Shown: piece after piece, positions 22,049 to 30,982 of the stretch
How positions within the stretch are numbered: position 1 is the first letter of the stretch
Layout of the letters: each line of letters begins with the position of its first letter
From: a virus
Taxonomy: Duplodnaviria; Heunggongvirae; Uroviricota; Caudoviricetes
IMG/VR virus record: IMGVR_UViG_2563366805_000002
DNA length: 30,982 bases
Direction: 5' to 3' (one strand)
Translations under genes and position numbers: made by a program
Notes under the pieces: model-generated
Database searches by the model: none
The model's input: only the letters and a program-made list of their open reading frames with translations
What the model was told of the DNA's origin: nothing

Positions 22049-22552
22049 TTATTGGTAGTGTTTTATGTTCAGATAATGCCCGATGACTTTGTCATGCAGC
22101 TCCACCGATTTTGAGAACGACAGTGACTTCCTGCCCAGCCTTGCCAGATGCTGCCTCAGATTCAGGTTATGCCGCTCAATGCGCTGCGTATATCGCTTGC
22201 TGATAACGTGCAGTTCTCCCTTCAGGCGTGATTCATAAAGCGGCCAGCCATCCGTCATCCATACCACGACCTCAAAGGCCGACAGCAGGCCCAGAAGACG
22301 CTCCAGCGTGGCCAGCGTGCGTTCACCGAATACGTGCGCAACAACCGTCCTCCGTATCCTGTCATACGCGTAAAACAGCCAGCGCTGGCGCGATTTAGCC
22401 CCGACATAGCCCCACTGTTCGTCCATTTCCGCGCAGACGATGACGTCACTGCCCGGCTGTATGCGCGAGGTTACCGACTGCGGCCTGAGTTTTTTAAATG
22501 GCGGAAAATCGTGTTGAGGCCAACGCCCATAATGCGGGCAGTTGCCCGGCAT
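22049..22552 (-). CDS. insB: IS1 InsB (normally expressed as the InsAB' transposase by a -1 frameshift)
   Basis: 167-aa ORF matching IS1 InsB; the A6C frameshift motif is present (complement of gtttttt at 22489-22495). Confidence 0.85.
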
Positions 22553-22746
22553 CCAACGCCATTCATGGCCATATCAATGATTTTCTGGTGCGTACCGGGT
22601 TGAGAAGCGGCGTAAGTGAACTGCAGTTGCCATGTTTTACGGCAGTGAGAGCAGAGATAGCGCTGATGTCCGGCGGTGCTTTTGCCGTTACGCACCACCC
22701 CGTCAGTAGCTGAACAGGAGGGACAGCTGATAGAAACAGAAGCCAC
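22471..22746 (-). CDS. insA: IS1 InsA
   Basis: 91-aa [46 protein letters not shown] (zinc finger, HTH); GTG start. Confidence 0.85.
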
Positions 22747-22796
22747 TGGAGCACCTCAAAAACACCATCATACACTAAATCAGTAAGTTGGCAGCA

Positions 22797-23072
22797 TCAC
22801 CGGATTTTCAATCTTAAAGGAGTACTGATGCTGCAGATAAGACTCAACTTTTCTGACAATTTTTCTGCTACTTCCAGGAAGACTTGCCGGACGCTCATTC
22901 TGGCTGCTGCCTCATAAAACTCCAGCGTAGCTCCTTCAACACGGTCCATGGCGACATCCAGGCCAAAAATTTCACCGTCAAAGCGTTCTTTGTCCTGTAA
23001 GGCTACAGTTACCGTAACTTTATTCTCAAAATTACGGACTCCTTTCACAACCAGTTCATAGCCTTGAGTCAT
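22797..23072 (-). pseudogene. ydfR: YdfR-like lysis-region protein, 3' end replaced by the IS1 terminus
   Basis: 91-aa ORF directly downstream of the holin; its stop codon (22797-22799) lies inside the IS1 terminal repeat. Assignment to YdfR is by size and context only. Confidence 0.4.
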
Positions 23073-23076
23073 TGGA

Positions 23077-23292
23077 TTATTCTCCTCTCGCAGCCTTACG
23101 CCTGTCTTCTTTAATCTTGAAATAAAGATTTGTCAGATACGTCAGCAGGCCAAAAACCAGGCTACCCAGCACACCGATTGCAGCCCACTGTGACGGAGTT
23201 ACTTTATCGAGTAACTGCAATGCCCAGAAACCAGCATTACCCGCCGATGTGCCATAGGCAACACCTGTTGTTAACTTATCCATTGATTTCAT
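23077..23292 (-). CDS. essQ: Phage holin (class II-like, EssQ/EssD-like)
   Basis: 71 aa from [30 protein letters not shown]... with two predicted TM segments and a charged C-terminus ([13 protein letters not shown]); SD GGTGAGGA upstream. Confidence 0.75.
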
Positions 23293-23511
23293 ATCCTCAC
23301 CCCGATGTACACGGATGGTGCAATATGTTTGAAAAGATCGGAGTCTACGGGGTAGTTTTGACAGCACACGCTGTTCTCAACGGCGCTAAAGAAACATACA
23401 CATTAAAAATGTGAGTAATTATTTTGAAAGAAAGTCATATATAAAATAATAATACGAGAAATGTTTTCATATTTAGTGTACTGTATACGGCCATTTATAC
23501 AGGAAAAGCCT

Positions 23512-23682
23512 ATGTCAGAACGTAAAGACTCAAAATCACGCCGTAATTATCTCGTTAAATGTTCCTGCCCAAACTGCACCCAAGAGTCAGAACACAGTTT
23601 TTCAAGAGTACAAAAAGGTGCCCTTTTGATCTGCCCTCATTGCAACAAAGTATTCCAGACAAATCTTAAAGCTGTAGCCTGA
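23512..23682 (+). CDS. ynfU: Small zinc-ribbon protein (YnfU-like, 56 aa)
   Basis: MSERKDSKSRRNYLVKCSCPNCTQ...LICPHCNKVF carries CxCPxC and CPHC motifs; SD AGGAAA 7 nt upstream of the ATG at 23512. Confidence 0.5.
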   Translation: MSERKDSKSRRNYLVKCSCPNCTQESEHSFSRVQKGALLICPHCNKVFQTNLKAVA

Positions 23683-23744
23683 TTGATTTTATTAGTAACA
23701 AGTATTTTTTATATTTTAATAATATATTTAAAGCAGATAATAAA

Positions 23745-23764
23745 AAACCCGCCTGAGCGGGTTT
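23745..23764. terminator. Bidirectional rho-independent terminator hairpin between ynfU-like and cspB
   Basis: AAACCCGC-ctga-GCGGGTTT stem-loop flanked by an A-run (5') and T-rich sequence (3'), so it carries a U-tract in both orientations. Confidence 0.5.
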
Positions 23765-24045
23765 GAGATTGTGGTGCTTTTTGTGGGAGTCATCCACTTA
23801 CGCACTTTGTTTTGCCATGCCAGCAGTTAGCTTCTGCTGTAAAACTATTCATGCAGCAAACCTGCACTTCACCACAATGGTTAGCATACTTTTCCTGATT
23901 AAGATTTTGCCAAATATGCTGGCCATTGTTTCATGTATTGGACCTCCTTAATTTTTATTAAAGAAATCCAATATTCACTACTCTGTCCGTATCTCTACTC
24001 AGGCATCAGCCTTCTTCGTTATCGTATACAGACGAGCGATGAATT

Positions 24046-24261
24046 TTAATCAGTAATGATGACATTTGCTGCTGCAGGACCTTTAGCACCACTCTCTATA
24101 GAGAAGGTAACCTTTTGACCTTCAAATAAGGTTCGATAATTATCATTCTGAATCGCAGAAAAATGCACAAACACATCTTTACTACCATCAACAGGAGAAA
24201 TAAAGCCGAAACCTTTATCAGCGTTAAACCATTTTACTAAACCAGTCATTTTATTTGACAT
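24046..24261 (-). CDS. cspB: Cold shock protein CspB-like
   Basis: 71-aa [56 protein letters not shown]...; matches E. coli CspB as I recall it. Confidence 0.85.
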
Positions 24262-24561
24262 TCTACATTCCTTAACTTGAGCCTTTCGGCATAAATGGTT
24301 TGCATAACAGAAACGACTTCGTACTTAATTGGAGAGACTCAAAGAAGGAATAAGTGAATAACACCTGAAATGAGAACTGCTTTAGTAAACTACTTCGTAT
24401 ATCGTCTGTTCTTCAAACCGACGCAATCATTAACGCATAGTTGAACATATGAAGCAATGTTTATTTTAGACATCCAGCCATCTTCAACCCCATCAAAAAA
24501 CTATAGCTTTCTTCAGGAACGTGTGTATAGTGCGCCAAGTTATCAGTATTAAGGAATTTTT

Positions 24562-24774
24562 TTGTCCCGTAAAATGACAGGAATTGTCAAAACCTTTGAC
24601 GGCAAAAGCGGCAAGGGTCTTATCACCCCATCCGATGGTCGTATCGATGTCCAGCTTCATGTTTCAGCGCTCAATCTCCGCGATGCAGAAGAAATTACCA
24701 CCGGATTACGCGTGGAATTTTGCCGGATAAATGGTCTGCGTGGCCCTTCAGCTGCCAATGTTTACCTTTCATGA
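24562..24774 (+). CDS. cspF: Cold shock protein CspF-like (divergent CspA-family member)
   Basis: 70-aa [44 protein letters not shown]...; divergent from cspB across a 300-bp intergenic region. Confidence 0.8.
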
Positions 24775-25066
24775 GCTATATTAAAGCTTTAATTTCAGGC
24801 CCCATCGGATCACACATGGAGAGTTTTTATGAATAACCCCGTCTGTCTTGATGACTGGTTGATTGGCTTTAAAAGCTTATGCTGTACTTTGGCCGTAATA
24901 GCTCTGCTAATAATATAATAAGCAGACTCATTGTGTTTAGGGACATTGTACTGGAAGAAAACATTTTAAACATCAGGCAAATAACCAAGTCACCAGCTAA
25001 ATAATAAGTTAACAGACATGAGTCCCGGGATGAGATTCAACATTACCATTGCCCCATTTAAAGCAC

Positions 25067-25090
25067 AAAACCCGCTCATCAGCGGGTTTT
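25067..25090. terminator. Terminator hairpin downstream of Q (candidate tR'-like terminator of the short late-promoter transcript)
   Basis: AAAACCCGCT-catc-AGCGGGTTTT perfect 10-bp stem, T-rich on both sides; about 105 nt downstream of the Q stop on the minus strand. Confidence 0.4.
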
Positions 25091-25195
25091 CTACTTTTTC
25101 TTAACGTCGGGTATACAAAGCCCATCGTTGAAAAAATTTTATCCATATTTTTTGAAAAATGCAAACATCATGTCGCCATCTTCAGCAAAAATCAT

Positions 25196-25948
25196 TTATC
25201 TCGTCACCTTCCTCAATTGCGCTTCCGCGTATGCTTCTTCCTGCCAGCACTTTGTTACCAGTTTACCAATGACGTCCGCATACCCCTTATACCACTGATA
25301 ATCGGTCAGGTCTGGTACCAGCTTCTGGACATGACGTCGTGCCAGCGTGGTCGGTAAACGACTAAACCGGTTTCCATTACAACGCCCACAAATCTTATAT
25401 ACCGGTACGCCATGAAACCGGGTTCTTTTTTCATCCAGAACAATCCCTTTACCCTTACACCCTCTGCACGCTGTGCTGGCTTCGCCCTTACCATGGCAAT
25501 GCTGACATAGTTCCTTCACCCATTCTTCCTTGATTACAGATTCCCCGCGTCTGTAGTGTTTCACCACTTCGCGCAATACATTATAAAATCCCGTACCTGA
25601 ACAATGCTCACAGCGAGCCTTACTTGCCGCAGACCTGGAGTAATCAGCAAAGGCAAAACTCACGAGGTAAGGAATAATCTGTAACCGGATTTCTTCACTC
25701 AATTTGTTCAATGTCGGGTTATCCAGTGCCATCGCGTAATTTAGCAGGCCTTCAATCGCAAACTGAGGGTCCTGAACACCAACTTTTGCCAGAAATAAGG
25801 CCAACCCAAGTGGTGCTTTCGACTGCACCATCCCCTGCGCTGCCATTACATCCGTAATTGTTAAACAACCGGTGCCTGTCGCTGGAGCGTCATCGCTCAA
25901 TTTTGGAGATTTTGGGGAGTAATATTTTGGTAAGGCTTCAAGGTTCAT
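25196..25948 (-). CDS. quuQ: Late-gene antitermination protein Q (QuuQ-like, zinc-finger Q family)
   Basis: 250 aa from MNLEALPKYYSPKSPKLSDD...; C-terminal CEHCSGTG...CQHCHGKG...CRGCKGKG...CGRCNG cysteine clusters; located upstream of the holin. Confidence 0.8.
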   Translation of the reverse strand: MNLEALPKYYSPKSPKLSDDAPATGTGCLTITDVMAAQGMVQSKAPLGLALFLAKVGVQDPQFAIEGLLNYAMALDNPTLNKLSEEIRLQIIPYLVSFAFADYSRSAASKARCEHCSGTGFYNVLREVVKHYRRGESVIKEEWVKELCQHCHGKGEASTACRGCKGKGIVLDEKRTRFHGVPVYKICGRCNGNRFSRLPTTLARRHVQKLVPDLTDYQWYKGYADVIGKLVTKCWQEEAYAEAQLRKVTR

Positions 25949-25961
25949 GCTCGTTCTCCAC

Positions 25962-27010
25962 TTACGCCAGTACGCCAATTGCCAGCGCGCGATCGATAAA
26001 ACGAAATATCAGCTCCAGTTGGGAGCCATACTTCTCTTCAAATGCCACTGTATCCGTATGCAGCTCGTTGTGATGCTTTCTGCACAAAGGCAACACAAAG
26101 AGATCATGTGCTTTTGTTCCCATTCCGCCCTGCCCGTGACCAATCAGATGATGCGGATCGTCGGCTGGCATACCGCAGCAAGCATACGGCTGTGTCTTAA
26201 CCCAGCGTGTGTATTTCTCCTTAACCCACCGGTGACGTTTAGGCAGCTTCATGAAAGATTCCGGAGACTCTGGATCAACGGTGATGCTTACCACCGTCTT
26301 TTCCTGTGATGGGTTTTGTTGCTGGTGGGCGTGAGGCAACGGTGCAAGATTTTTTGTGCGCTGTTTCAATATGCTGGTGGCGGTCTGCTCTCCCGGTACG
26401 ATGTCGCTTTCGCGGTACACCGAGCAGATTTTTTCCGCTGGTAATCCCAGCGAGCGACGTAATACCGCTTCCGGTAGCGCGTCCGCCAGCTGATTGCGGA
26501 CCGCCCACCAGGAAATTCAGCCAGAGATAATTCACGCTCCTGCGTACCGCTTATTGCGTGACCGATGACGTCAATCATCCATGCTGACAGGTTTTGATGA
26601 GCAAGTTGCTCGAGTGATTCGGATGTCTGGTCACGCAGCTGGTTGTCGCAGTGCCAGCACAACACCATTGCGCCGGTACCATATCGGTGAATAACGGTTT
26701 CGCTGTGATGATAATCGCCGTGTGGCCACTGGCAGGATTTAATATGGCGCAACAGCCAGTCAGACAATGCACCAGCACCACCAGCAGCACGAATTACCCG
26801 TGTGTTACTGAAAAACGGCAGCAATGTTTTGTCTTCCACCAGCGGCTGGCGAACGGCAGGAACGACCCCGGACGGCAGATTACGCATGCTTTTCGGTTCC
26901 GGCTCCACCAGTACCCGGGTATTGTGGAATACCGGCATGGATTCACGGCCCGGCTTAACGACCACCAGCCCGAGTTCCGGTACCAGAACAGGTCGAAGTA
27001 ATACCCGCAC
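25962..27010 (-). pseudogene. ydfU: YdfU-like (DUF968) gene split by a 1-nt frameshift
   Basis: Two overlapping minus-strand ORFs (26366..27010 and 25962..26420) in different frames; the combined span of 1049 nt is one short of 1050 (349 codons plus stop), matching the K-12 YdfU length as I recall it. A T6 run at 26429-26434 lies in the overlap zone. Confidence 0.5.
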
Positions 27011-27011
27011 G

Positions 27012-27290
27012 TTACCTCCAGAGGCGTTGCTGGAATGTACGGGACGGACGCGGTGGGCGTTCGGAGTAAGGCAATCTGACTGAGATTATCCAGTGACGGT
27101 AGTCGAGGCTAAGGGCTTTTTTAACCTCGTATCCGCGCCTGCGGTAACACTGAATTATCCATTCAGCCTGCTCTTCAGTGCATGGTGGATGCTGGAACCA
27201 GTCCGATTTGAATGCATGAAAACGCCGTCCGCACCTGCTGGCAAAGACGGCAGAATCATCAGAATTGTGTAATTTGGTATCGTGCGCCAT
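27012..27290 (-). CDS. rem: Rem-like small prophage protein
   Basis: 92 aa from MAHDTKLHNSDDSAVFASRCGRRFHAF...; position between ydfU and hokD as in Qin. Confidence 0.45.
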   Translation of the reverse strand: MAHDTKLHNSDDSAVFASRCGRRFHAFKSDWFQHPPCTEEQAEWIIQCYRRRGYEVKKALSLDYRHWIISVRLPYSERPPRPSRTFQQRLWR

Positions 27291-27662
27291 CGGTTGTCTC
27301 TGCTGGCGCAGCAGGTGCCAGTTGTTCAGGCTGGCGTATAAAGTATAAATAAACTGGTTCCAGTGTAAAGCCCCTACATTAATGGAATAAAAGTCAAACA
27401 ACAGATTGTTGGGATAAACACAACGCTTATTATTAAAAGCGATTAGATAAATTAAATTTTAATGTTATGCAATTTTACCAGATCACCATAACATCTCGTT
27501 TGAAACCACCAAAACAACAACCATATCAATATTGATTATGTTAAAGTGAGTAAATATGGAAAACAACAAATCTGCACATTACGCTCCTTTTTTATCTGTG
27601 ATACTTTTTGTTTTATGCTGTGTGTGGGCATTATTTTTATAAAAATATTTACAGATAAAATA

Positions 27663-27680
27663 AACCCGCCGAAGCGGGTT
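27663..27680 (-). terminator. Rho-independent terminator downstream of hokD
   Basis: AACCCGC-cgaa-GCGGGTT hairpin; on the minus strand it is followed by TTTATTTTAT. Confidence 0.5.
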
Positions 27681-27748
27681 AAGTGCGGGTGCATTGAGGA
27701 TGCCTGACACATCAGAGGTGGCGAGGGATTTCTCCCTCGCCTGGTCTC

Positions 27749-27904
27749 TTACTCCTCAGGTTCGTAAGCTGTGAAGACAGCGACCTCCGTCTGGCCGGTT
27801 CGGATTCGTACCTCGCAGAGGTCTTTCCTCGTTACCAGTGCCGTCACTATGACGGTTAAACAGATGACGATCAGGGCGATTAACATCGCCTTTTGCTGCT
27901 TCAT
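27749..27904 (-). CDS. hokD: Hok-family type I toxin (HokD/RelF-like)
   Basis: 51 aa MKQQKAMLIALIVICLTVIVTALVTRKDLCEVRIRTGQTEVAVFTAYEPEE; SD AAGGAGAAG about 6 nt upstream. The ORF track shows an in-frame 19-codon upstream extension. Confidence 0.85.
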   Translation of the reverse strand: MKQQKAMLIALIVICLTVIVTALVTRKDLCEVRIRTGQTEVAVFTAYEPEE

Positions 27905-28519
27905 AGCCTGCTTCTCCTTGCCTTTCGGCACGTAAGAGGCTAACCTACATGTGTCTAGCATGAAATTGGCCTCAGATTAATGTTAAGCGTCTTGCAGGAC
28001 GCGTAATGTCAACTGGGGCTTTTCTCTATCTGCCTTTGGTGTTCATGCCTGAGGCAGATAGCCTCAAGCACCCGCAGCAATTCTACTTAACTCACGTCAC
28101 CTCGCCAATATAAAATCAATCAGAAAGGCGATCCGTAAGAACAACAGCAAGACAATAAATTGCCATTACAGCCGCAATAGCTAGCGCACATTTGAGAACC
28201 AGCACGACAACCTCCTGTATTGGACGTACACCAGTCCTGATAAATATGAGGCTGTCTCATCATTGATTCAATATAACTATTGGGTATAGTTTCTGTGATT
28301 TTGTTCTGTAGAAATGGAACACAACAACCAGTCTCCACCAGCACTTCTTTAAATACGCCAAGTCCGACGCAAGCTAACCTTCTAGTCCGCTTTGAGCGAA
28401 CTGTGGAAGCTCGCAAATGTTGTTACATCTGATGAAGGCATTACTCAAAGGAGGGGATAGTAGTCAACGTGGAGCAGGCCATGTTAGTATTTTTATACAA
28501 TTCGACTAAGGGAAAAACA

Positions 28520-28708
28520 ATGAGGCTTTACATAATAGGAAATGGATTTGACATGCGTCATGGCTTACCAACAGGATACAAGCACTTTAAGTCGTATGTA
28601 GAAAAAAATGACCAAGATCTATATGACGCGATAGAAGAATACATTCCTGCTGGGGACGAGTGGAATGAGTTAGAAAATGCTTTAGGTGAAATTGATTATG
28701 AGCTTTGA
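28520..28708 (+). pseudogene. AbiH-like abortive-infection gene, N-terminal 62 codons only (cut by IS3)
   Basis: MRLYIIGNGFDMRHGLPTGYKHFKSYVEKN... carries the N-terminal IIGNGFD...HGL motif I associate with the AbiH family (Pfam PF14253); the stop codon TGA at 28706-28708 is the first three bases of the IS3 terminal repeat. Confidence 0.5.
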
Positions 28709-29150
28709 TCCTACCCACGTAATATGGACACAGGCCTAAGCGAGGTTCTTGTTTTCAAATTGTTCCGGACTGAGGCCGCCACACCAACTGTGCCGCCGCC
28801 ACCGATTGTAATCACATTCGATATAATTAAACACCGTTGCCCGCATTATTTCCCGGCTGATAAAGTGTTCTCCATGGATACATTCCACTTTCAGCGAATG
28901 AAAGAAGCTTTCCACGCAGGCATTATCGTAGCAGCAACCTTTTGCGCTCATACTTCCACGCAGATTATGCCGCTTCAGTTGCGCCTGATAATCTGCTGAA
29001 CAGTACTGGCCTCCACGGTCCGTGTGAACGATAACGTTCCGGGGCCTCTTACGCCGCCACAGCGCCATCTGCAGGGCATCGCAGGCCAGTTGCGCCGTCA
29101 TGCGTGGCGACATTGACCAGCCAATAACGGCACGTGACCACAGGTCAATG
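28706..29150 (-). mobile_element. IS3: IS3 fragment (terminal ~445 bp including the right inverted repeat)
   Basis: TGATCCTACCCACGTAATATGGACACAGGCCTAAGCGAGG terminal sequence at 28706; encodes the InsF C-terminus ...[13 protein letters not shown]; IS3 homology stops abruptly at 29150. Confidence 0.85.
28736..29150 (-). pseudogene. insF: IS3 transposase InsF (orfB), C-terminal portion only
   Basis: Residues ...[49 protein letters not shown]... including the DDE-domain region; the N-terminal part is replaced by the IS629-like element. Confidence 0.8.
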
Positions 29151-29202
29151 TGAACCGCCCCGGTAATCCTGGAGACTACACTCTTTGAGAGAGGTAACCA
29201 GG

Positions 29203-29526
29203 ATGACAAAACATAACCGATTTCCCCCTGAAGTTCGTCAACGCGCTATTCGTATGGTTCTGGAAAACCAGAATACCTACAACTCACAATGGGCCGCTAT
29301 CTGCTCCATTGCCCCTAAGATCGGCTGCACTCCCGAGACATTGCGTATCTGGATCCGTCAGCAGGAGCCCGTTGATGATGAGCAGAATGCGCTGACTGCC
29401 AGCGAACGCCAGCGTCTGAAAGAACTGGAGCGGGAAGTCCGCGAGCTGCGCCGCAGCAATGATATTCTGCGTCAGGCTTCAGCGTATTTTGCCCAGGCGG
29501 AGCTCGACCGCCACTGGAAAAAATAA
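29203..29526 (+). CDS. IS3-family transposase OrfA (HTH)
   Basis: [54 protein letters not shown]... with a leucine-zipper-like C-terminus; related to IS629 OrfA. Confidence 0.8.
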
Positions 29527-29940
29527 TGCCGCTTCTGGAAAATCTGAGCGGTGAACACGGGGTCGGGCCAGTCTGTCATGAGCTGGATATTGCTCCGTCA
29601 ACGTACTACTGGCATCAGCAACGCCGGAAGTGTCCTGAACGACGCAGTAGTCGGGATAAACGCGATGCCGTGCTGATACCTGAGATACAGCGCGTATACG
29701 AAGAAAACTACAGCGTTTACGGTGTGCGTAAGGTCTGGCGACAGCTAAAACGTGAAGGTGTCGGCGTTGCCCGCTGCACCATTGAGCGCCTGATGAAAGC
29801 CCTGCAGCTACGTGGGGTGACACGCGGCAAAAGTGTCAGAACCACCCGCAGCAACAAAGCCGAAACACCGCAGGATCGGGTGAACCGGCAGTTCGTGGCT
29901 GAACGGCCCGATAGTCTTTGGGTGGCCGATTTTACCTACG
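29526..29940 (+). CDS. IS3-family transposase OrfB, 5' portion (interrupted after ...LWVADFTY by the intron)
   Basis: The frame reads ...RPDSLWVADFTY and then enters intron sequence at 29941; the ORF-track residues after this (GVPGVQGEHGC...) are intron-encoded read-through. Confidence 0.7.
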
Positions 29941-30982
29941 GTGTGCCCGGAGTTCAGGGTGAGCATGGATGCTCAAATGAACCACGAGTCTGTCTGGAAT
30001 ATTGAACCGGTAACTCACGATGAGAAACCCAACAATCCCGTCGGGTGTGACGGCGGAGAACCTGAGCGGCAGTGACCTGCGGCATGCCCGCAGGGTGATG
30101 TAACCCGCTGACAACGGGGATTGAGGCGAGATCACTAAGCCGAGATGATCCTCAAGGTTAAGTACTGAAAGGCTGAAGAACATGAACCCGTTAATCCGCC
30201 TCTGTGGGTTGAAAACGTCACCACGGCCTACGTGATCTGACAGGCCGTGCAGGAGGAACTGGCAGTGATACGTAAGCACTGCCGGTCGAAGGTTTTTTGA
30301 CATGTATGCGAAACACCGGGGCAGCAGCGTCTATCACGCTTGCGTTGCTGACCTCTGCCAACTTGCGGCAAGCAAGGATAAAGAGTGCGACGGGCAGCCT
30401 CCTCAGTATGCCTGAGTCCAGACAGGTAAACCGGGGAAGGTCAGCGACGGATGTTAAGGGGGCATGGCTCCGATGACGCGCTGGCTGGCGGAGCTTCCGT
30501 AGTAGTCCGCGATGGGGAAAGCCCATTACATGGCGAAGGGAAGCAGTTTGAATGTGTTTGCGACGTGAATTAACTGACCTAACGAGGTGAAGACCTTTGA
30601 TAATCAGCGAAATGCAACGCAAGCTTGCCACATGGGCAGTCACCGATCCGTCCCTACGGATTCAACGGCTGCTGCGTCTGATAACACAACCAGAATGGCT
30701 GGCTGAAGCGGCGCGGATCACGCTTTCATCAAAGGGGGCCCATACCCCCGGCGTTGATGGCGTGAACAAAACAATGCTACAGGCCAGACTGGCTGTTGAG
30801 CTGCAAATCCTCAGGGATGAATTACTCTCAGGCCACTACCAGCCCTTGCCCGCCAGACGGGTTTACATCCCTAAAAGCAACGGCAAACTGCGACCACTGG
30901 GTATCCCCGCGTTGCGGGATCGTATTGTTCAGCGGGCCATGCTGATGGCGATGGAGCCGATATGGGAGAGTGATTTTCATAC
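29941..30982 (+). mobile_element. Group II intron, 5' part (domains I-IV and start of the intron-encoded protein), continues beyond the window
   Basis: Begins GTGTGCCCGGAG... (GUGYG consensus, similar to the Ll.LtrB 5' end GTGCGCCCAGAT); about 670 nt of structured non-coding sequence, then an RT-type ORF. Confidence 0.7.
30612..30982 (+). CDS. Group II intron-encoded reverse transcriptase/maturase, N-terminal 123 codons (partial)
   Basis: MQRKLATWAVTDPSLRIQRLLRLI...HTPGVDGV...YIPKSNGKLRPLGIPALRDRIVQRAMLMAMEPIWESDFH has the RT domain 0/1 signatures (TPGVDG, RPLGIP, RDRIVQ). An alternative TTG start at 30597 has better spacing to GAGGTGA. Absent from the ORF track because there is no stop in the window. 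Confidence 0.8.
   Translation, partial: MQRKLATWAVTDPSLRIQRLLRLITQPEWLAEAARITLSSKGAHTPGVDGVNKTMLQARLAVELQILRDELLSGHYQPLPARRVYIPKSNGKLRPLGIPALRDRIVQRAMLMAMEPIWESDFH

Follow-up and report, generated by a model that had tools for sequence, protein, structure and literature searches.

The short reading frame upstream of hokD in the window is best explained as the inactivated 5' end of an AbiH-family gene with a SIR2-like intact product, which was carried as prophage cargo and lost its remaining sequence to IS3 and a deletion. Taken as a whole we regard this explanation as highly probable. The window is the whole stretch of DNA analysed here, 30,982 nucleotides in length; the prophage in it is of the Qin-type lambdoid kind, in which the late structural genes are complete and the early region is missing. 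The remnant itself matters little, being a pseudogene that was correctly recognised as belonging to a known defence family, and is useful as a pointer. What is potentially new, namely the catalogue of cargo at this site and the family of a 463-aa neighbour, lies in both cases outside the window. The features around the remnant are the following.

27749-27904, minus strand: hokD toxin gene, 51 aa (MKQQKAM...), homologous to K-12 hokD and annotated in collinear genomes; the conserved left flank
27899-28073, minus strand: hok/sok regulatory region, Rfam RF01794 (sok), 119.5 bits against a gathering score of 59, model positions 1-157 of 157
28074-28383, no strand: spacer, outside both the hok/sok flank and the mobile abiH module according to blastn boundary mapping
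28384-28519, plus strand: upstream region of abiH, 136 nt, found together with abiH in other genera as well; presumably promoter and 5' UTR
28469-28708, plus strand: maximal ORF with GTG start, 79 aa; its TGA stop (28706-28708) is formed by the first three bases of the IS3 terminus
28520-28705, plus strand: abiH remnant, codons 1-62 of a 289-codon gene for a SIR2-like AbiH protein; PF14253, 70.4 bits
28706-29150, minus strand: terminal fragment of IS3 (end TGATCCTACCCACGTAATATGG..., C-terminal part of the transposase) with rve, rve_2 and rve_3 domains, which truncates abiH
29151-29927, plus strand: 5' part of a second IS3-family element inside IS3, with orfA (29203-29526), a frameshift pseudoknot and the start of orfB
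29928-30982, plus strand: 5' part of a group II intron inside the second IS element, running off the window end; ltrA lies at the collinear position in ECONIH4

Reading frame and family of the remnant

The maximal ORF offers three candidate starts, which are GTG at 28469 (79 aa), ATG at 28481 (75 aa) and ATG at 28520 (62 aa, MRLYIIGNGFDMRHGLPTGY). In collinear genomes RefSeq uses the second of these and lists the 75-aa product (WP_000959906.1) as 'AbiH family protein', with the status of a CDS and not of a pseudogene. As the real start of abiH we favour ATG 28520, because the PF14253 profile begins there, because many homologues comprise 289 aa and start at the equivalent Met, because the AlphaFold model of the 302-aa form is disordered over residues 1-10 (pLDDT below 50), and because the sequence AAGGGA (28508-28513) is found 6 nt upstream. 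Counted from this ATG to the stop, 62 codons survive, the number given in the original prediction.

The same prediction had recognised an AbiH signature in the N-terminus and had proposed a profile search. The 62-aa peptide indeed matches Pfam PF14253 with an E-value of 3.4e-19 and 70.4 bits over profile positions 1-68 of 260, far above the gathering cutoff of 30.9 bits and beyond chance. The PADLOC AbiH model matches the fragment as well (E=8e-9). A chance ORF or a mistaken motif is ruled out by the Pfam E-value.

The glycine-loop motif IIGNGFD, which follows the N-terminal beta strand, is present at 28520-28560, and its residues G20-N21-G22-F23-D24 are invariant in all 28 aligned homologues. 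According to the AlphaFold model of the intact allele, the remnant covers the first beta strand, the GNGFD glycine loop and the first helices. Further invariant positions of the family alignment are N151 (FNYT), H171-G172 (HIHG) and G246-H247-S248. The window copy stops at residue 75 in the 302-aa numbering and retains only the glycine loop, without the Asn, the His-Gly and the C-terminal GHS motifs; a complete SIR2-like domain with the FNYT Asn and the HIHG His-Gly is not found in it. The remnant is expected to be inactive, because the invariant Asn151 and His171 are missing and the stop codon is supplied by IS3, which agrees with the earlier presumption that the gene is not functional here. 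Judged from its sequence, the window copy is a pseudogene derived from the AbiH family and not a functional member. Objects of that kind are known: it is an IS-truncated pseudogene of an annotated defence family, labelled as such a family member by RefSeq, in a decaying prophage.

Truncation by IS3 and decay of the locus

An uninterrupted version of the locus, as sought in related E. coli genomes, is present in E. coli strain 503025. This allele encodes a full-length AbiH of the same family and is 100% identical to the window through base 28705, where the window switches to TGATCCTACCCACGTAATATGG.... Neither of the two outcomes that would have refuted the prediction (lack of a significant AbiH hit, or an intact allele from a different family) has thus come about. 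The 445 bp IS3 fragment that follows is 100% identical to annotated IS3 copies. The far side of the nest of elements is situated beyond the end of the window and was read from relatives. Genome ECONIH4 is collinear with window positions 23653-30982 (99.2% identity); in that genome the other end of IS3 abuts an internal position of rspA, and the triplets flanking IS3, CTT and GTA, represent no target-site duplication. In genomes of the junction class of the window, only nt 1-230 of the cassette of abiH and its neighbour could be matched. Judged from these relatives, whose shared sequence is nearly identical to that of the window, the three observations indicate a deletion, not a simple insertion. 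IS3 itself, or recombination between two copies of it, would have been the cause.

The second element comprises HTH_Tnp_1 and HTH_21 domains and an Rfam ALIL pseudoknot (29481-29597, 93 bits). It is annotated as IS3 family transposase in ECONIH4 and missing from the sister genome VREC0761. Matches confined to the intron begin at query position 1223 of the segment 28706-30982. VREC0761 is 100% identical to window positions 1-25000 and shares the abiH-IS3 junction, with IS30 as the only element nested in IS3; the second IS element and the intron therefore arrived later. The elements form a nest three levels deep, in which IS3 contains the second IS3-family element and this in turn the group II intron (28706-30982; L001 7807-13865; L031 28737-31122). 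IS30 is found within the same IS3 further on, and plasmids carry the IS element with the group II intron as well, at about 87% identity. Other signs of decay in the prophage are seen in the annotation transferred from L031 (approximately 22050-23293 and 25962-27010): an IS1 adjoins a DUF1327 gene which is frameshifted and neighbours the essD holin gene, no lysozyme gene is annotated between cspI and essD, and the DUF968 gene ydfU is frameshifted.

The course of events would be as follows. The abiH gene and its own upstream region would have been accessory cargo of a Qin-type lambdoid prophage, situated between hokD-sok and the replication genes and read in the opposite direction to the prophage genes around it. 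IS3 would have landed after codon 62, its terminal TGA now closing the reading frame. An IS3-associated deletion would then have taken the remaining 227 codons of abiH and the adjacent 463-aa gene, together with rspB, the 3' end of rspA and the prophage's entire early region, which comprises replication, immunity, dicB and integrase. IS30 and afterwards the second IS3-family element carrying the group II intron would have been nested within IS3 later on.

Among 5,426 complete E. coli genomes, abiH DNA is found at the locus in 116-118, of which 65 retain at least 80% of the gene and 49 show an abiH-IS3 junction; clonal series of isolates are contained in these numbers, which do not represent independent events. 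The IS3-truncated form makes up about 45% of the carrier genomes. Among the 40 junction matches listed, 23 have exactly the junction of the window, while the other 17 belong to a second IS3 insertion at nt 566, 341 bp further into the gene, mostly in O6:H16 ETEC. There are thus at least two independent IS3 insertions into abiH. Other broken alleles carry an IS1 insertion, an ISVsa5 insertion or a truncation at nt 102. The repeated disruption by IS elements is compatible with abiH being costly to carry as well as with the plain decay of a grounded prophage.

The RefSeq annotation as CDS, the intact upstream region with its Shine-Dalgarno-like sequence and the occurrence of the same junction in at least 23 complete genomes could be taken to mean that the 62-aa ORF is itself functional, for example as a small regulatory or decoy peptide kept by selection. 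We consider this extremely improbable, given that IS3 supplies the stop codon, that the invariant Asn and His and the C-terminal GHS motif are absent, and that other lineages are broken elsewhere (IS3 at nt 566, IS1, ISVsa5, nt 102), which is a pattern of decay. Over the junction the 23 copies show 100% identity, and the clonal CX and 0H series of isolates are among them; their number therefore reflects descent and not selection.

The cargo site between hokD-sok and DUF977

The Qin prophage of K-12 is 96% identical to the window from cspB to ydfU, and homology resumes over hokD to end at window position 27918, 14 nt upstream of the hokD start. Beyond hokD, K-12 continues with relE-relB-ydfV-flxA, the window with sok and then abiH, and no match to relE or relB DNA of K-12 could be found anywhere in the window. 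This bears out the two earlier statements that relBE is absent upstream of hokD and that abiH occupies the position in which K-12 carries it. The block that diverges from K-12 begins 14 nt ahead of hokD and reaches ydfA; the immunity and replication genes fall within it. In contrast to the K-12 arrangement, hokD in the window (27749-28073) resembles a self-contained hok/sok unit.

Homology with the Providencia/Morganella loci that contain abiH alone, and with a Klebsiella prophage, begins at the equivalent of window position 28384. For the approximately 290 nt between about 28093 and 28383, no convincing gene, promoter or RNA family was found. A scan for promoters and terminators revealed only weak consensus matches in the window region, about twice the shuffled expectation, and fewer sites than expected in the intact locus. 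A 29-aa hydrophobic ORF on the minus strand (28116-28205) was considered as a second hok-like toxin and was rejected, as it has no similarity to HokD.

Nine prophage versions of the interval from hokD-sok to DUF977 were compared, and the flank boundaries were mapped by blastn in four of them. Their contents are as follows.

Strain 503025: abiH and the 463-aa gene
IGC_RcoliRes_1.1 (L023 5264-7022): RmrA (HTH and M78 peptidase, PADLOC 356 bits) and RmrT (PADLOC 65 bits)
E2348/69 (L025 5089-7239): three plus strand genes of 363, 142 and 197 aa
Isolate 30602_1#64: QueH
OV24 and CFSAN027343: small DUF genes
VG12A2: a methyltransferase gene and ISEc20
K-12: relBE-ydfV-flxA
BL21 derivative Rosetta2-DE3 (L024 2893-3799): empty

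RmrA and RmrT make up the Rosmer system, and the interval thus holds a defence system that is already catalogued. The three genes of E2348/69 have no Pfam or PADLOC match; they are oriented like abiH, against the prophage genes, and form a candidate defence or moron cassette. Both flanks are kept in seven other prophages, and the four that were mapped show 90-97% identity. Homology of the left flank stops at the end of sok (window position about 28073-28092) in three of the four, whereas in the BL21 derivative it continues for about 150 nt more. On the right it resumes at the stop codon of the DUF977 gene, which is the end of the replication module, again in three of the four, and inside a shortened DUF977 gene in the BL21 derivative. 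The latter shares about 155 nt past sok with the abiH-type locus (window 28074-28228) and then continues with this shortened gene (360 versus 423 nt). The 'empty' site of BL21 may have arisen by deletion from an ancestor with abiH, as opposed to never having been occupied.

The conserved flanks, the variable content with known defence genes among it and the empty state are those of a mobile-element cargo hotspot. The original suggestion of a swappable site is upheld by these data, since the flanks hokD-sok and DUF977 are kept and the content differs (RmrA/RmrT, QueH, DUF genes, a methyltransferase or nothing). It can be asked if the difference between abiH and relBE is instead due to ordinary mosaic recombination between lambdoid early regions, without any discrete cargo site. 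The block that diverges from K-12 does reach as far as ydfA, immunity and replication genes included, and several occupants are not defence genes (small DUF genes, QueH, methyltransferase). However, both flanks are kept in seven other prophages with wholly different content in between, one site is empty, another carries Rosmer-type genes, and a dGTPase defence gene is located about 1.1 kb away from the equivalent site in Klebsiella. Recombination of that general kind is therefore in our opinion a distinctly unlikely explanation on its own, and we retain the discrete cargo site. The site is nevertheless a general mosaic accessory region of lambdoid prophages and not a dedicated defence slot. 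We take the interval to correspond to the nin-type accessory region of phage lambda. In Qin/Rac-type prophages the interval from hokD-sok to the replication genes holds relBE, Rosmer-like genes, AbiH and unknown gene sets, and it could serve as a source of new defence genes. In the literature searched, nothing specific was found on a named hotspot next to hokD or on an AbiH gene of Qin.

The intact allele, its neighbour and known systems

The intact allele of strain 503025 matches PF14253 with 233.3 bits over profile positions 1-258 of 260, and the PADLOC AbiH model with 95 bits in three stretches only. It contains N151 and H171-G172, and its predicted structure has the Rossmann-type sirtuin (SIR2) fold. 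A SIR2-like predicted fold was also described for lactococcal AbiH (PMC13064643). From the position of the motifs and the fold match, N151 and H171 probably represent the catalytic Asn and His of SIR2. The intact protein would be a SIR2-like (sirtuin-fold) enzyme and, by analogy with other sirtuins of phage defence, once an infection is sensed AbiH would most likely abort it by destroying NAD+.

The original prediction had noted that a partner gene could not be seen in the window. Intact alleles elsewhere do have a conserved gene downstream: in E. coli a gene for a 463-aa protein (WP_001297697.1) follows abiH after 89 nt, and no terminator-like site was found in the spacer between the two. Searches of WP_001297697.1 against Pfam, PADLOC, NCBIfam and PHROGs gave no hit. 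The two genes occur together in the E. coli Qin-type prophage, in a Klebsiella lambdoid prophage and on a 108-kb IncFIB plasmid with phage-type genes. In the Klebsiella pneumoniae prophage (L015 2503-4751) a dGTPase-type defence gene (PADLOC 473 bits) is located about 1.1 kb away from the pair, with an unannotated gene of 237 aa in between, and together they make up a small defence cluster within the prophage.

A scan of genome contigs revealed only three loci of the partner family, two of them tiny fragments, and was replaced by exact-protein look-ups and by scans of viral and metagenome sequences. The census comprises 64 loci with enough upstream sequence. In all 22 loci with a 463-aa protein at least 85% identical to that of E. 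coli, abiH lies directly upstream, at a distance of 88-93 nt in 21 of them. At 46-56% identity, 11 loci have an Abi_2 (PF07751) gene 16-60 nt upstream, and one locus has a DUF3644 gene in that position. In 30 of the 64 the upstream ORF is unrelated (integrase-like, copies of the gpU ORF of L010, and others) or there is no ORF on the same strand. Providencia and Morganella contain abiH alone at about 90% DNA identity and with the same 136-nt upstream region, the homology ending 27 nt past the stop codon. The allele of Serratia (75%) is likewise found without the 463-aa gene.

The family comprises widespread proteins of about 450 aa in 677 clusters at 50% identity. It has an invariant D...D...ExK...R...Q signature and no match in Pfam, PADLOC, PHROGs, NCBIfam or the PDB. 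In distant members (28-29% identity; metagenome contigs L093 797-1588 and L099 2948-3730) a conserved protein of 260 aa (MERCFVIQPFDGG...) is encoded about 270 nt upstream, which may be another clade-specific neighbour. Four members of 669-690 aa (P0284, P0286, P0291 and P0306) have an additional N-terminal region of about 250 aa without Pfam match; such fusions might reveal a sensor or partner domain.

The unit lost from the window could have been a two-gene system, in which AbiH and the 463-aa protein, a putative PD-(D/E)xK-type nuclease, act as sensor and effector or as dual effectors. The strict linkage in the 22 close loci, the occurrence of the pair in three kinds of mobile element, the spacer without terminator-like site and the presence of different Abi-type genes (Abi_2 in 11 loci, DUF3644 in one) 16-60 nt ahead of members of other clades of the family all point in this direction. 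But the 22 linked loci are closely related and hence not independent, abiH occurs without the 463-aa gene in Providencia/Morganella and Serratia, and 30 of the 64 family loci have no Abi-type gene upstream, as for example in P2-like prophages, in ICE transfer regions and next to integrase genes. Moreover, the AbiH proteins of Lactococcus and Vibrio are reported to work as one-gene systems (PMC13064643; bioRxiv 10.1101/2024.06.14.598830). We therefore judge a two-gene system to be rather unlikely. The same doubt applies to the wider proposal that the family is an undescribed anti-phage nuclease module, which works alone or is coupled clade-wise to AbiH, Abi_2 or DUF3644, and that the window lost a two-effector cassette. 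If that were true, the deleted cassette, which is not in the window, would be a composite two-effector defence. The evidence argues against an obligate partnership. Because the copies of Providencia/Morganella and Serratia stand alone, abiH appears to be a self-contained module, and the 463-aa gene would be a second module that became linked to it in one lineage. The family of this neighbour is a reasonable candidate for experiment.

With respect to its site, the locus can be compared to the relBE-hokD (relBEF) arrangement of K-12, with which it has the prophage backbone, hokD and the presence of cargo immediately beyond hokD in common. In the window hokD keeps its own sok region and the cargo is transcribed away from it, whereas in K-12 hokD is located directly behind relBE and the cargo is transcribed into it. 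The defence hotspots of P2 and P4 prophages (Rousset et al. 2022, PMC9122126) likewise have conserved flanks, exchangeable defence and toxin-antitoxin content and an empty state; the present site differs in belonging to lambdoid (Qin/Rac-type) prophages and in including non-defence genes.

The intact E. coli allele is a full-length member of the same Pfam family (PF14253) as lactococcal AbiH (Prevots et al. 1996) and the proteins covered by the PADLOC AbiH model, Vibrio AbiH among them. Shared features are the N-terminal glycine-loop motif, the carriage on mobile elements and the SIR2-like predicted fold, the last as described for lactococcal AbiH, while the window copy is only a 62-codon stump. 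In contrast to the one-gene AbiH systems, the prophage allele of E. coli and Klebsiella consistently has the 463-aa gene next downstream. To the NAD+-depleting SIR2 defence proteins (ThsA of Thoeris, DSR1/DSR2, SIR2-HerA/Nezha, SIR2-Avs5 and SIR2-pAgo) the identity is only 10-20%, and unlike these systems AbiH consists of a bare domain of about 290 aa without a fused sensor such as SLOG, STAND, HerA or pAgo.
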